Positions 44,012 through 48,841 of a stretch of DNA of 64,000 nt are shown piece by piece. Source of the DNA: an uncultured bacterium. GTDB taxonomy: Bacteria; Chlamydiota; Chlamydiia; Chlamydiales; SM23-39. Below the pieces are notes generated by a model that was not told the origin of the DNA, ran no database searches, and worked only from the letters and a program-made list of their open reading frames with translations. The translations under genes were made by a program, and so were the position numbers. How positions within the stretch are numbered: the first letter of the stretch is position 1; the number at the start of each line of letters is the position of its first letter. Location: NCBI GenBank assembly GCA_963716985.1, contig OY970323.1, positions 497,942 to 561,941 on the forward strand, given 5' to 3'.

Positions 44012-46024
44012 ATGAAAAATCCAATGAAATATTCCCACCTGTTCGTAAGCTCTCTTCTCCTCTGTTCCTTTCCCAGTTTCATGGCGTATCCTCAGGAGAT
44101 CAGTGAGCGGATATTCCCCATTCCCTCAATCAATGGTCATTTAAGTCCATTTATCCAGAGATTATTCATGGAGAACCATGTTCTTTCCTATGACGCGATT
44201 TTAGAACTTATTGAACAGATAGAAAATGATGAACTGGACGAATCCTGTACGCCGGAAGATTGGAATCAGATCTGCCATTTTTTGGCCTATTTAGCTCGGC
44301 AGGGAACGATGCCCAGCGCCACAGAAGAAGAAAAGGCAGAGCTTGAGAGGGACATTGAGGAACTGCTCAATTCCTGCAAGGAAGTGGAGCGCAGCTCTTA
44401 TTTTCTGGAATCAAAAGAATATGCTGTTGTTCCTGCCGTCTACTCCTACGAAGGCGACCATGCAGAGCTTTGCAAAAGCTGGATCCATAAGCAGTGGAAT
44501 CATACCAAACATTTCATCAAACATCATAAAGTAGCTGTGATCGTAGGCTCTGTGCTGGTCGTTGCCGCTGTAGTTGTCGTTACTACTGTGGTCGTTGCAT
44601 CTTCAACTGCAGCAGCCGCAACTGCCGCTGCAGCTGCCAAGAACTCTAAATCTAAAGAATCGCCAAAGACGGCCTTTGGAGATGAAAGCTCTTGCGATGC
44701 TTCTCTATCGAATCAGGAGGAAACTCTTGAGGCCGTTGAAAATCAGGTTTCTGCTCTGAAGACAATTGCTGATAAAAATGATTTTTTGGCCTCGAATGAC
44801 CCAAAGAGCGATCTATTCGATAAAGACAATGCCCGGACCGTTGGTTCAGCCCTGACCCATGAAACGATCGATTCAGTTGCTTTTAGCGCTCCATCAACTC
44901 CTCTCTCGTCAGAAGCCTTGAATCTGACGATTGCTACAGGACATGGAGTTGCCGACCTAGCTTTTTCAACAGAACAATCGGTTCACCATGTGAACCAAGA
45001 ACCTTCTTTGGATGATCTCGAAAGTCGTTTGCAAAAAAATGTAGTCTATTGCCAGGGAGAACAAGCGCTTAAAACTGGAAATTACGAACAGGCAATCGAC
45101 CATTTTAGTCAAGCGATTGCCGCAGATCCCCAAAACAACGAAGCCTATTTGCAACGGGCTGTAGCGTATATGGAGCTGGAAGAATACGAGCATTCCCTAA
45201 GCGATTATAGCACCTATTCGGCACAGGAAACGCTTCCTTCGAAAGACACTTTATCGAATACTGTCGATTTTGGCGTTGGCTTTGCGAAGGGCTTGCCCAA
45301 AGGAGTTATGGAATCGGGCCACCAATTGGCCGCATTTGCATCTGAGCTGGTTTCTCATCCAATCGATACCGGTAATAATGTATGCAGAGCATTTACAAGT
45401 CTTGCAAAACTTGCCCTTTCTCAGGAATGGGCGACTTTAAGCCAGTCGCTAGCTCCCGAGGTGTGTCAGCTTATCAATGAGTGGAACCTACTCTCATCTC
45501 AGCAGCAGGGAGAGCGTTCCGGATACATCTTTGCCAAATATGGCGGAGATATTTTGATCCCCGGCGCTGCGGCCAAAGTGCTCTCGAAGGGCATCGAAGG
45601 AGCCAAGGAGATCGCCCTTGCTGCCAAAAATTTAGAAACCGCAGAACAAACACTTGCTTTGGAAGCACTTTCGCAGTCTGCGAAAAACTCTCTTCCTTTT
45701 GCAAAGAGTCCTTTCGCAAATTCAATCAGTGAATCAGAAAATAGAGCTTTTAGGGCTGAAACCAATAGAAAAAGACATGCAAAATTTTTACAAGATTATT
45801 TTGAAAAACCGACTAAAGAAATTCAAAAAGGCATCGTAAGCTATGAAAAACAAATTGCTATTCATCAAGAAAAAATCTCAAACCCATCAAAGTATATTAA
45901 AAACTGGCATGAATTAGACCCAAGAAAACAGGAGGCATTAATCAATAAGATCTGGCCTGCTGAGATACAGCTCTATACGGAACAGAGAGACATTCTTCAA
46001 TTTATTTTAAACCAAAGGGAATAG
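44012..46024 (+). CDS. Polymorphic-toxin-type protein: signal peptide, TM/Ala-rich segment, TPR-like block, conserved pre-toxin block, variable C-terminal domain 1
   Basis: See finding. MKNPMKYSHLFVSSLLLCSFPSFMA; VAVIVGSVLVVAAVVVVTTVVVASS; and the block VDFGVGFAKGLPKGVMESGHQLA...GDILIPGAAAKVLSKGIEGAKEIALAAKNLE, which is repeated downstream. Confidence 0.8.
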   Translation: MKNPMKYSHLFVSSLLLCSFPSFMAYPQEISERIFPIPSINGHLSPFIQRLFMENHVLSYDAILELIEQIENDELDESCTPEDWNQICHFLAYLARQGTMPSATEEEKAELERDIEELLNSCKEVERSSYFLESKEYAVVPAVYSYEGDHAELCKSWIHKQWNHTKHFIKHHKVAVIVGSVLVVAAVVVVTTVVVASSTAAAATAAAAAKNSKSKESPKTAFGDESSCDASLSNQEETLEAVENQVSALKTIADKNDFLASNDPKSDLFDKDNARTVGSALTHETIDSVAFSAPSTPLSSEALNLTIATGHGVADLAFSTEQSVHHVNQEPSLDDLESRLQKNVVYCQGEQALKTGNYEQAIDHFSQAIAADPQNNEAYLQRAVAYMELEEYEHSLSDYSTYSAQETLPSKDTLSNTVDFGVGFAKGLPKGVMESGHQLAAFASELVSHPIDTGNNVCRAFTSLAKLALSQEWATLSQSLAPEVCQLINEWNLLSSQQQGERSGYIFAKYGGDILIPGAAAKVLSKGIEGAKEIALAAKNLETAEQTLALEALSQSAKNSLPFAKSPFANSISESENRAFRAETNRKRHAKFLQDYFEKPTKEIQKGIVSYEKQIAIHQEKISNPSKYIKNWHELDPRKQEALINKIWPAEIQLYTEQRDILQFILNQRE

Positions 46025-46034
46025 TTTTAAATTT

Positions 46035-46274
46035 ATGAATGATAAAAAATTTGAGCATTACATAAAAGATCTGGGGGTCTTAATTAAAGAAAAAGCGCGA
46101 GAAGCGAAGATTAATGAAGTCAATTCTGATGCTAAAAATGCTGATTATAATATAGGGTACCTTATGGCTTTCCATGAAATAATTGTCCTTATGAAGCATC
46201 AGGCAATGGTTTTCAATATTGAACAAGAAGATATTGGTTTGGCTGATATAAATGCAGAAACAGATTTGTTATAA
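46035..46274 (+). CDS. Putative cognate immunity protein 1 (79 aa)
   Basis: A small ORF starting 10 nt after the toxin stop, same strand. The call rests on position only. Confidence 0.5.
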   Translation: MNDKKFEHYIKDLGVLIKEKAREAKINEVNSDAKNADYNIGYLMAFHEIIVLMKHQAMVFNIEQEDIGLADINAETDLL

Positions 46275-46275
46275 G

Positions 46276-46349
46276 CTCGACTTTGCAACTTTTTGCTGCA
46301 TAAATCATGCCGTCTGAAGTACTCGTTTCACTATAGCCCGTCCATTCCG
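46276..46349 (-). repeat. Diverged IS701-like terminal remnant at the junction with orphan cassette 1
   Basis: CTCGACTTTGCAACTTTTTGCTGCATAAATCATGCCGTCTGAAGTACTCG... compares with the IS end CTCGACTTTGCAACTTTTAGCGGCTTAGTTCAGGCCGCCTGAAGCACTCG... Confidence 0.65.
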
Positions 46350-46384
46350 TTACTGTCGATTTTGGCGTTGGCTTTGCCAAAGGC

Positions 46385-47257: not shown

Positions 47258-47261
47258 TTAT

Positions 47262-47630
47262 ATGGGCATTGAAAATATTGATAAAAAAAGTTTTATGAAA
47301 GATTTTTTTGACAACATGGATTTGATTGCAGACAAAGAACAACAAAAAAGGGCATGGATAATGGGGATCGGCCCTGTTTACTATGATTTTGATGAAGCAG
47401 TGATCATTTTTTTTGAGCACGTTGAAATTATTTTAAAAAATTATAGAGATTTTAATATTGATGAAAGTCAGCATCTTTTATTAAAATCATTTTCGAATGA
47501 GTTTAAAACTTTTTCTGATGAACATGATTGGCCACAAGACTTTATAGACACTCCCAAGTGGACGAAGATTACAGAAATGGCCAAAGAAGTGCTAGATGCT
47601 TTTCATTGGGAAAGGCATTCGAGCAAATAA
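47262..47630 (+). CDS. Putative immunity protein 2 (122 aa)
   Basis: It starts 4 nt after the cassette stop and is a paralog of 48470-48841. Confidence 0.55.
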   Translation: MGIENIDKKSFMKDFFDNMDLIADKEQQKRAWIMGIGPVYYDFDEAVIIFFEHVEIILKNYRDFNIDESQHLLLKSFSNEFKTFSDEHDWPQDFIDTPKWTKITEMAKEVLDAFHWERHSSK

Positions 47631-47852
47631 ACGTCCTTATAGTCAGTTTCCACGGCCATTTTCATAATTCCGACATTTCGATCCCCCATAACGGCTCTCA
47701 AGCCGCTTGATTTTCCGGCGATTTACGAGCCCACAATTTCGCTCGGTTTCGCGGCCTGACCGGTAGGTCGATGACTCCTAACAACCATCTTCTCACCTCA
47801 GCAGCAGGGAGAGCGTTCCGGATACATCTTTGCCAAATATGGCGGAGATATT

Positions 47853-48473
47853 TTGATCCCCGGCGCTGCGGCCAAAGTGCTGTCGAAGGGCATCGAAGGA
47901 GCCAAGGAGATCGCCCTTGCTGCCAAAAATTTAGAGACGGCAGAACAAACCCTTGCTCTGGAAGCCCTCTCTCAATCTGCCAGGAGTTCTACAACCTTTG
48001 CTGAAATGCCGACGCAATTGAGTGCTAAAGCCGAGGAGATAGTAATCACGACGAAGGGGGAGAAATTTCTTCGAGAAAATGGTCTTTGGGAATCATATGA
48101 AAAACATGAAAGAGCTCAGGAATTTTTAAAACCATATCGAAAACAATATCTTTCTGAATCTCAAGTACGAGAACTGATTCACCAAACCGGAATGCCTACA
48201 TTTCCAAGGCCACAGGGAATTCCAGACAATTTTCGTGTAAAAATCTCAGATCGAGGAGCTGGCATAGAATATGTGCATCCGACTAATGTACACATTCGCA
48301 TCAGAGTTATGCCTGGGAAGCCTCACAGCTCTAATCTAGCTCAGCAACGTCCCTATGTAATTTTTTCAAAACACGGAAAAGTGTTTGATAAAATAGGAAA
48401 TATCGTGGATCCTTCGTCACCCGAAGCTCACATTCCATTGGATGAATTTAATCTTTCAAGGATTGGATTATGA
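47853..48473 (+). CDS. Orphan toxin cassette 2: short pre-toxin stub plus C-terminal domain type 2 paralog. Homology and the open frame start at ~47790/47775, and there is no ATG
   Basis: ...QQQGERSGYIFAKYGGDILIPGAAAKV...EALSQSARSSTTFAEM...TTKGEKFLRENGLWESYEK...GMPTFPRPQGIPDNFRVKISDRGAGIEYVHP...IRVMPGKPHS...PYVIFSKHGKVFDKIGNIV...EAHIPLDEF. Confidence 0.7.
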   Translation: MIPGAAAKVLSKGIEGAKEIALAAKNLETAEQTLALEALSQSARSSTTFAEMPTQLSAKAEEIVITTKGEKFLRENGLWESYEKHERAQEFLKPYRKQYLSESQVRELIHQTGMPTFPRPQGIPDNFRVKISDRGAGIEYVHPTNVHIRIRVMPGKPHSSNLAQQRPYVIFSKHGKVFDKIGNIVDPSSPEAHIPLDEFNLSRIGL

Positions 48474-48841
48474 AAATTTCTGATGAAGATAAAAAACAGA
48501 TATTACTAGGTTTTATTAAAATATTTACACGTATTTATGATAAGGAATATCAGCAAAGAGTTTGGATTGACGGAAGAGGGCCGGAATGCGACGATTTTGA
48601 CGATACAGTGTGCGATTTTTTTGGAGTCGGCGACTCGATTATAGAAAATTATAAGGACTTCGGGATTACGGATCAGCAGAAGCATCTTTTGATGCGATTT
48701 CGTGATGAATTTAAAACTTTTTCTGATGAACATGATTGGCCCCAAGACTTTATAGACACTCCCAAGTGGACAAAGATTACAGAAATGGCCAAAGAAGTGC
48801 TAGGTGCTTTTCATTGGGAAAAAAAATCTCCTAAGAATTAA
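48470..48841 (+). CDS. Putative immunity protein 3 (123 aa)
   Basis: Its start overlaps the cassette stop (ATGA). The C-terminal ~45 aa are near-identical to 47262-47630. Confidence 0.55.
   Translation: MKISDEDKKQILLGFIKIFTRIYDKEYQQRVWIDGRGPECDDFDDTVCDFFGVGDSIIENYKDFGITDQQKHLLMRFRDEFKTFSDEHDWPQDFIDTPKWTKITEMAKEVLGAFHWEKKSPKN

Follow-up and report, generated by a model that had tools for sequence, protein, structure and literature searches.

Polymorphic toxin systems as such are well known. Zhang et al. 2012 (PMC3482391) described several toxin domains in chlamydiae, mostly without immunity proteins, and regarded immunity-linked cases as rare among endosymbionts; toxin/immunity pairs with orphan arsenals were likewise considered uncommon in obligate intracellular bacteria, the listed exceptions being Odyssella, Simkania and Rickettsia bellii. 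Reports of the toxin PT7 have been confined to Firmicutes and Proteobacteria. This Mg-dependent, non-specific endo-DNase has a fold not seen before, is toxic to both E. coli and yeast, is carried by LXG toxins of the type VII secretion system (T7SS) and enters fungal cells; in the crystal structure of the two proteins together, PIM7 occludes the active site of PT7 (doi 10.1101/2021.10.19.465003). Here we describe a locus of an uncultured member of the Chlamydiota (GenBank assembly GCA_963716985.1, contig OY970323.1), contained in a 64,000-nucleotide (nt) stretch of DNA that was analysed at its full length and is called the window below. Built around a gene for a 670-amino-acid (aa) protein whose sequence is already on record in NCBI/ENA, it is, as judged from its sequence, a genuine polymorphic toxin-immunity locus and a novel, lineage-specific form of an established type of system. 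Full-text literature searches found no description of the chlamydial scaffold family to which the protein belongs, composed of a leader, a membrane helix, TPR repeats and a conserved block.

The locus consists of one intact toxin gene and two orphan cassettes that lack an upstream start, each followed by a small open reading frame (ORF) for a putative immunity protein. An earlier note on this DNA, made from its letters, had given the position of the 670-aa ORF, the sizes of the three small ORFs, the 10-nt and 4-nt gaps before two of them and the ATGA overlap of the third, all of which were reproduced here. The features, in window coordinates, are:

44012..46024, + strand: full-length polymorphic toxin gene, 670 aa, with leader, N-domain, membrane helix, TPR, block and tail A
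44012..44089, + strand: hydrophobic N-terminal leader MKNPMKYSHLFVSSLLLCSFPSFMAY, aa 1-26, Sec-signal-like, read from the sequences with a crude hydropathy count
44531..44644, + strand: predicted membrane helix, aa 174-197, plus an Ala-rich run (Kyte-Doolittle 19-residue window up to 2.9)
45047..45211, + strand: TPR repeats, aa 346-400 (Pfam TPR_1 and TPR_2, E ~1.5e-8, above cut-offs)
45263..45682, + strand: conserved 140-aa block VDFGVGFAKGLPKGV...GDILIPGAAAKV...LALEALSQSA, defined by DNA repeat and alignment A3, ending in an invariant L-E
45683..46024, + strand: tail A, putative toxin domain of the intact gene, basic (isoelectric point, pI, 9.5) and all-alpha
46035..46274, + strand: putative immunity gene A, 79 aa, acidic, pI 4.9, 10-nt gap after the 670-aa ORF
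46337..47257, + strand: orphan cassette 2, no upstream start, with the full block (46351-46773) and tail B (46775-47254)
47262..47630, + strand: putative immunity gene B1, 122 aa, pI 4.8, 4-nt gap after orphan 2
47496..47613, + strand: 3' patch of immunity gene B1, 118 nt, 95.8% identical to 48704-48821 in B2
47775..48473, + strand: orphan cassette 3, no upstream start, with the 3' half of the block (47791-47980) and tail B (47982-48470)
48470..48841, + strand: putative immunity gene B2, 123 aa, pI 4.9, start overlapping the orphan 3 stop (ATGA)

A self-comparison of the locus bears out the recurrence of the block and its boundaries. The block at 45259-45681 is repeated at 46351-46773 over 423 nt with 95.7% DNA identity, and its 3' half (45492-45681) at 47791-47980 over 190 nt with 94.7% identity. 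Both repeats are sharp-edged, falling from >93% identity to background within one 60-nt window, and their edges lie where similarity had been said to stop abruptly, just after ...EALSQSA; from there copy 1 carries a 113-aa tail (tail A) that differs from the tails of copies 2 and 3. Orphans 2 and 3 match at 94% from 46586 to ~46885 and from 47793 to ~48092, past which their tails have 60-70% DNA identity, and the two copies of tail B, ~160 aa each, are 64% identical as proteins. Immunity proteins B1 and B2 are 59% identical, with ~60% DNA identity between their genes outside the 118-nt patch. The two tail-B cassettes thus have near-identical ends, owing to the block upstream and the patch downstream. 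The patch looks like the product of gene conversion, or like a second stretch of homology for recombination beside the cassettes. No further copies of the repeats or cassettes were found elsewhere in the 64-kb window. At 32-38%, the GC content of the cassettes (tail plus immunity gene, 45683-48841) is lower than that of the block (50%) and of the window (43%), which is consistent with horizontally exchanged modules. In the window, pI values are 9.0-9.6 for the basic tails and 4.8-4.9 for the acidic products of the small ORFs.

Database searches with the locus returned ~40 close relatives at first and then many more, which, where a source was named, came from chlamydial metagenome-assembled genomes. 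The 670-aa protein has 21 homologs at 33-58% identity and 64-87% query coverage, only one of which carries tail A; the possibility that homologs always have the same C-terminus, raised in advance as an argument against polymorphism, therefore falls away. Scanning one genome per GTDB species with alignment A3, we found the block in 68 loci, nearly all of them in chlamydial-labelled genomes (Chlamydiae/Chlamydiota, Parachlamydiales, Rhabdochlamydiaceae, Simkaniaceae, Neptunochlamydia and Sacchlamyda), several of which have three to four loci. A few block loci are labelled Verrucomicrobia, Acidobacteria or Micrarchaeota, and we suspect that these genomes are mis-binned or mis-labelled. The block is contained in 116 of the 184 family proteins.

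To pair tails with their neighbours, the 75 block-bearing ORFs with a complete 3' end (from the 68 loci and the window) were taken, and their tails and first downstream ORFs were clustered separately. The block proved to be joined to ~8 real tail types in further chlamydial genomes, as the earlier note had proposed to look for. Tail B corresponds to type T1 and tail A to type T2, and the downstream ORFs sort with the tails nearly one-to-one: T1-I1 in 27 loci, T2-I2 in 9, T3-I3 and T4-I4 in 5 each, and T6-I6, T7-I7 and T8-I8 in 2 each, with three T1 mismatches only. As the script accepted ATG starts only, most T1 and T3 genes scored as having no partner are cases of contig ends or non-ATG starts. 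Across the family, the gap between tail gene and downstream ORF ranges from -29 to +60 nt. An apparent further type, T5/I5, was rejected, being a tail B (T1) gene split by a frameshift. Several tail-B genes (L022, L047 and L037) are frameshifted just past a linker, with the PT7-like domain called as a separate ORF of ~105 aa; these are pseudogenes or sequencing errors.

Recognised toxin domains also occur as tails on the same scaffold in other genomes, namely Ntox50 (Pfam E 3.7e-28) and DUF4258 (26.3 bits against a cut-off of 25). Start-less, 5'-truncated copies of the block, that is orphans, are present in six other contigs (L028, L059, L062, L063, L068 and L071). Gene anatomy, family-wide swapping of tails, co-variation of tail and immunity gene, and orphans beyond the window are thus direct observations. 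Set against what defines a polymorphic toxin system, the family has variable C-terminal toxins on a conserved N-terminal region, a downstream immunity gene specific to the tail type, start-less orphan cassettes homologous to the main gene (two of them in the window) and toxin domains common to other trafficking architectures (LXG, PT-TG and PT-HINT). A trafficking domain or machinery (type V (T5SS), type VI (T6SS) or type VII secretion, MafB_N, TcdB/TcaC, MuF or PVC) was not found in the window protein, 15 relatives or the neighbouring genes. With swapped C-termini, co-varying downstream ORFs and Ntox50 and DUF4258 on its scaffold, the locus is well described by the earlier proposal of a polymorphic toxin-immunity locus with two orphan cassettes.

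The 670-aa gene would encode, in order, a leader, an N-domain of ~130 aa, one membrane helix, TPR repeats, the 140-aa block and a swappable C-terminal toxin. The signal-like N-terminus, hydrophobic stretch and TPR-like segment noticed earlier correspond to the hydrophobic leader at aa 1-26, a hydrophobic core at aa 174-197 followed by the Ala-rich run, and the Pfam TPR match at aa 346-400. A leader motif, (K/R)..hLLLxT(T/S)P(S/T)hhxYPQ, is present in many family members; a conserved polybasic stretch, KHFIKHHK, lies immediately N-terminal of the membrane helix; a comparable stretch, hydrophobic or Ala-rich and 30 aa or longer, occurs in 52 of the 184 family proteins; and the TPR segment is matched by 102 of them. 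For the whole 670-aa protein, NCBIfam gave TPR-type matches only and Pfam TPR only, and the 140-aa block on its own matched no Pfam or NCBIfam model. From its position and repetition we take the block to be a pre-toxin module that probably doubles as recombination homology. A resemblance to PT-TG-like pre-toxin linkers had been suggested for it; PF14449 was absent at E<=1. Kinship with PT-TG was rejected on the direct comparison, in which hhalign against a Bacillus PT-TG protein gave a probability of 0.4% and E 0.13, with the best path still on the PT-TG region. Many relatives (P0016, P0020-P0022 and many of P0043-P0184) have a conserved linker, ELGFTAKEMGQLQKAGKLE, that is absent from the three copies in the window; it stands between tail and block, or between the tail and a shorter scaffold without TPR and block.

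The earlier note could assign neither tail to a known toxin fold, which still holds for tail A, with no significant match in the PDB, but no longer for tail B. An AlphaFold2 (AF2) model of tail B built from a 29-sequence alignment (mean predicted local distance difference test score, pLDDT, 93.2) has three helices followed by a five-stranded beta core. Foldseek against the PDB gave 8owu_C as the only meaningful match, with probability 1.00, a template-modelling (TM) score of 0.70 on the target, a root-mean-square deviation of 2.7 Å over 75 columns and 24% identity. The 8owu entry is the D37A mutant of the polymorphic toxin PT7(Bc) with its cognate immunity protein PIM7(Bc). The tail B sequence profile matched 8owu_B at E 0.01 over 57 residues, with LDKxGNxVxxxSPEAHIPL aligned to LDLNGNIVDAKSPDAHIPY, and hhalign of tail B against three PT7 sequences from Bacillus and Listeria plasmids gave a probability of 95.3% and E 2.4e-8, over only 27 columns. 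We confirmed LXG and PT-TG proteins in Listeria and Bacillus as PT7 carriers. Single-sequence phmmer searches with the tails found no match in the PDB, and scans of Pfam, NCBIfam, PADLOC and PHROGs with both tails, the block and the 79-aa ORF yielded no match above noise. On profile and model evidence, we conclude that tail B is a divergent member of the PT7 superfamily and is probably a metal-dependent nuclease with a remodelled active site; its invariant residues are R89, H96, Q102, Y106, D117 and H131. A profile search for this domain found 1,176 clusters (at 50% identity; 740 of them at E<=1e-10) among 1.84 billion representative proteins, and among the 150 best matches the domain is nearly always C-terminal.

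The 122-aa and 123-aa ORFs behind tail B match nearly the full NCBIfam profile NF047838 (SCO4402) at 24.5 and 26 bits, below the cut-off of 50; all 20 of the 20 I1 family members match the profile below this cut-off as well (best E 9.4e-11). By this profile evidence they would be distant relatives of the SCO4402 family that fall below the NCBI membership threshold, and the pairing of tail B with an SCO4402-like ORF is the one that recurs in 27 loci. The I1-type immunity protein had no match among PDB sequences. Kinship of the 122-aa ORF with PIM7 was considered and rejected (hhalign against a Bacillus PIM7 homolog, probability 5%). In another chlamydial contig (L001) a homolog of the tail-B immunity protein (124 aa, 40% identical, at 3882-4256) stands alone, with no toxin fragment, behind a tail A gene and the accompanying 79-aa ORF; this is an orphan immunity gene.

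The AF2 model of tail A has a pLDDT of 81, with the core above 90, and long helices at aa 44-66 and 80-112 of the tail. Its profile matched no PDB sequence and the fold search gave no significant match; helical-bundle matches from Foldseek against the PDB (4dci at probability 0.75, DCTPP1 at 0.4) were weak and were not relied on. Relatives of tail A are few and mostly short, orphan-like fragments. In BFVD, tail A was matched best by a phage 'minor capsid protein' of 401 aa (30% identity over 105 columns, E 1.1e-3, probability 1.0), and minor head proteins of the MuF type carry polymorphic toxin tails (Zhang et al. 2012, PMC3482391). As no relatives of tail A were found in phage genomes (tblastn) or viral contigs, this match remains a lead.

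Searching plasmids by tblastn led to two informative relatives. The C-terminus of a Leptospira weilii PT-HINT protein is 43% identical to tail A (E 6e-15); this protein (WP_004499339.1 of pDO6; PT-HINT Pfam E 2e-24) is encoded next to an Rhs gene and followed by a 72-aa ORF that is 30% identical to the 79-aa ORF of the window (E 3e-11). The plasmid pSn of Simkania negevensis Z encodes the full TPR-block-tail A scaffold, with a tail A 59% identical to that of the window, followed by a 79-aa ORF at 49% identity. This family member (L081, NC_015710.1, ~130.2-132.0 kb) resides on a conjugative plasmid of a cultivable chlamydia, and its toxin ORF is missing from the gene table of the plasmid collection, where only the 79-aa partner WP_013935110.1 is listed. 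In the pairing analysis every tail-A gene has a homolog of the 79-aa ORF behind it (9 of 9 for T2-I2), the one in L001 being 49% identical to the window ORF. From the Leptospira and Simkania occurrences it follows that tail A and the 79-aa protein are a portable toxin/immunity pair, carried on different delivery scaffolds in different phyla. The residues H3, E17, Q19, K20, S24, H32, P39, K41, W46, P51, W62, P63 and E71 of tail A (A6 numbering) are invariant across phyla. By sequence and model, tail A would be a basic helical-hairpin toxin that possibly acts on nucleic acids too. It is probably not PT8, a Leptospira-specific toxin (Nachmias et al.), judged by partner size alone (72-79 aa against 116 aa for PT8).

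We propose, with a probability of roughly three in four, that the window holds a polymorphic toxin-immunity locus of a Chlamydiota-specific family, with stored alternative cassettes, export that starts through Sec, and other chlamydiae as the likely target. The 79-aa acidic protein would be the immunity protein for tail A. The two promoter-less, start-less cassettes, each with the whole block or half of it, a PT7-like tail B and its own SCO4402-like immunity gene, would serve as stored alternatives: homologous recombination through the 190-423 nt of block homology (95-96% identity) could swap tail A and its immunity gene for a tail B cassette, and the 118-nt homology at the 3' ends of immunity genes B1 and B2 could allow exchange between the two tail-B cassettes. 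We infer that such cassette switching actually takes place. Export would most likely start through Sec, by way of the leader and/or a signal-anchor helix, after which the TPR-block-toxin part would be released or presented outside the cell, and the most likely targets would be other chlamydiae in the same host cell or inclusion. An N-in/C-out signal anchor would export the toxin part, and the polybasic stretch before the helix points to such an arrangement. Family N-termini vary, comprising leader plus helix, leader plus CPxGCG motif, or acidic N-terminus plus helix, so that the conserved functional unit would seem to be the TPR-block-toxin module.

A number of observations weigh against this proposal. 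In line with the earlier statement that no recognisable delivery machinery lies nearby, Pfam and NCBIfam searches of the window protein and of 15 diverse relatives detected no LXG, Rhs, PAAR, CdiA, MafB_N, HINT or other trafficking domain, and secretion genes were not found among the neighbours of the locus. The topology cues conflict, as a Sec-like leader with one helix would leave the toxin cytoplasmic, whereas the polybasic stretch before the helix indicates N-in/C-out. For tail B, profile similarity to PT7 is confined to the last 27-60 residues, and the PT7 catalytic residues D37 and H47 are not conserved: RVMPGKPHS...QQKPYV of tail B aligns with RIDPPDK...YDHVH, so that D37 stands opposite Met91 and H47 falls within the QQKPY region. 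Finally, most chlamydial toxin domains are seen as host-directed (Zhang et al. 2012, PMC3482391), and a eukaryotic target is plausible since PT7 kills yeast.

These last points belong to an alternative that we consider unlikely but take seriously, in which the proteins are host-directed effectors, secreted by the type III (T3SS) or type II (T2SS) secretion system into the inclusion membrane or host cytosol in the manner of inclusion membrane (Inc) proteins. The toxin would then act on the amoebal or animal host, for example in killing or exit, and the small ORFs would protect the producer before export. An obligate intracellular lifestyle fits this idea, as do the entry of PT7 into fungal cells, the adjoining gene for a eukaryote-like RING and ankyrin protein, and those family members that have no leader and an acidic N-terminus. 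The long hydrophobic or Ala-rich segment resembles the hydrophobic domains of Inc proteins; however, the protein has one clear 23-aa hydrophobic core only, and a hydrophobic, Sec-like leader is atypical for a T3SS substrate. What speaks most directly to the target is that the downstream ORFs co-vary with the C-terminal tail and not with the N-terminus, that silent orphan cassettes and swapping are a hallmark of intraspecific conflict, and that Leptospira has the same tail/immunity pair on a PT-HINT toxin encoded beside Rhs genes. The pairing with immunity genes and the orphan cassettes favour bacterial conflict, and the alternative disputes only the target, leaving the identity of the locus as a polymorphic toxin locus in place.

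A very improbable further reading takes the locus for a non-exported addiction, toxin-antitoxin or abortive-infection module, membrane-anchored with a cytoplasmic toxin and with the small ORFs as antitoxins. It would account for the failure to find delivery machinery, for a cleaved leader and single helix that leave the C-terminus cytoplasmic, and for the family member on conjugative plasmid pSn, and DUF4258 and Ntox-type domains do occur in toxin-antitoxin systems as well (Zhang et al. 2012, PMC3482391). Yet a 550-aa scaffold of leader, membrane helix, TPR and block is superfluous for a toxin-antitoxin pair, and start-less orphans that share only the pre-toxin block are foreign to such systems. 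The toxin gene also precedes the immunity gene, the tails are common to exported LXG, PT-TG and PT-HINT toxins, and PADLOC gave no meaningful match.

The genome is metagenome-derived, and a related ENA contig (L073, 1295-2765) looks chimeric, with a 79-aa immunity gene, the orphan-2 block fused in frame to the orphan-3 tail and a truncated 123-aa gene between foreign-looking flanks; it is either a natural recombinant of the two orphans or a chimeric assembly. An independently assembled ENA contig of 22.7 kb (L074) has the identical gene order (radA-sodA-accD-dut-ptsN-ptsN, ankyrin on the minus strand, 670, 79, 285, 122, 206, 123, clpC on the minus strand, lplA, proS). That the repeats are an assembly artefact, as the earlier note allowed, or a recent, meaningless tandem duplication has a negligible chance of being right, because the second assembly agrees, the copies are 94-96% and not 100% identical (4-6% different), similarity stops sharply at the block/tail junction into diverged paralogous tails and immunity genes, and the same architecture recurs in dozens of genomes.

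Beyond the proposal of a chlamydial polymorphic toxin-immunity locus, we put forward a broader version tentatively, as possible rather than probable. In it the scaffold of leader, membrane helix, TPR and block would be a Chlamydiota-wide delivery platform with a new route of export and entry, used to kill co-resident strains and re-armed by cassette switching, and tail A would represent a new all-alpha fold shared with toxins of spirochaetes and phages.

The locus is surrounded by housekeeping genes, the RING and ankyrin gene and many insertion sequence (IS) elements. Directly upstream, at 42350-43726 on the minus strand, is a gene whose 458-aa product has a RING finger at the N-terminus, ankyrin repeats and a hydrophobic segment at the C-terminus and is a candidate eukaryote-like E3-ligase effector by its domain content. 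The region from 3713 to 26562 is IS-rich, with three IS66-family transposase ORFs (3713-5251, 18497-20035 and 21529-23199) and repeated ORFs of 454 aa (8476-9840, 13255-14619 and 15936-17300) and 346 aa (5688-6728 and 25522-26562) that are apparent DDE_5 transposases, one ORF of each size class having been confirmed by Pfam; a DUF6399 protein is encoded at 10814-12523. The earlier note took the place between the ptsN genes and clpC-lplA for a possible variable spot relative to Chlamydiaceae; in C. trachomatis the ptsN-clpC interval would correspond to CT286-CT290. Both the window and a further chlamydial contig (L004) have the string accD-dut-ptsN-ptsN (39555-42277 in the window) only a few kb from the toxin locus, and in L004 it comes after rnc-radA-sodA. 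There the toxin gene is on the opposite side of the string, so the position of the toxin locus is not conserved.

The locus shows that environmental chlamydiae (Parachlamydiales, Simkaniaceae, Rhabdochlamydiaceae and others) have a large family of putative toxins on a scaffold of its own, present several times in a genome and devoid of any known delivery domain. Bacterial targets would imply warfare between strains within host cells, together with a new delivery route; a host target would imply a family of nuclease effectors with built-in self-protection. The recently solved PT7 DNase fold is also extended to a new phylum, with another active-site make-up and another immunity family, and a portable pair of tail A and 79-aa ORF, common to Leptospira, is defined. 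As Simkania negevensis Z is cultivable and has a family member on its plasmid, the question can be addressed by experiment.

Among the systems to which the locus can be compared, chlamydial Inc proteins are likewise membrane proteins in which a long hydrophobic or Ala-rich segment is free of charged residues. They differ in having a bilobed two-helix domain, a non-hydrophobic T3SS signal and neither toxin tail, immunity gene nor orphans; the window protein, compared by hydropathy only, has one 23-aa core, a weakly hydrophobic Ala-rich run and a hydrophobic leader. CdiA-CT/CdiI and Rhs-CT orphans have a similarly sharp border between conserved and variable parts, at which ...LALEALSQSA is comparable in role to VENN or PxxxxDPxGL, and their orphan pairs also keep upstream homology for recombination. 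Unlike those systems, the window locus has no CdiB, FHA repeats, Rhs/YD repeats, PAAR or VgrG, and its protein is small at 670 aa. Closer in design are toxins with only a signal peptide (the 'T2SS class', MafB-type; Zhang et al. 2012, PMC3482391), which share the Sec-like leader without a dedicated secretion domain, the conserved N-terminal region and variable C-terminal toxin, the immunity gene directly downstream and the arrays of orphan cassettes. The chlamydial family differs from them in lacking MafB_N/DUF1020 and in having its own scaffold, restricted to Chlamydiota as far as seen.

At the level of the toxins, the closest counterpart of tail B is PT7/PIM7 of Bacillus cereus (PDB 8OWU, Nachmias et al.), with which it shares the beta-core fold, the C-terminal motif LDxxGNxVxxxSPxAHIP, a place at the extreme C-terminus of a polymorphic toxin, the occurrence of short orphan genes and a following acidic protein of ~120 aa. 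Tail B departs from PT7 in its three extra N-terminal helices, in the replacement of D37 and H47 in a domain with invariant H96, Q102 and Y106, in an immunity protein that is SCO4402-like (5% by hhalign against PIM7) and in its carrier, a chlamydial TPR-block scaffold in place of LXG (T7SS) or PT-TG. For tail A, the counterparts are the Leptospira weilii PT-HINT toxin and the Simkania pSn gene, in both of which a homolog of tail A (43% and 59%) precedes one of the 79-aa ORF (30% and 49%). The Leptospira protein is set apart by its PT-HINT pre-toxin domain and a gene next to Rhs, whereas the Simkania gene shares the whole TPR-block scaffold with the locus described here.

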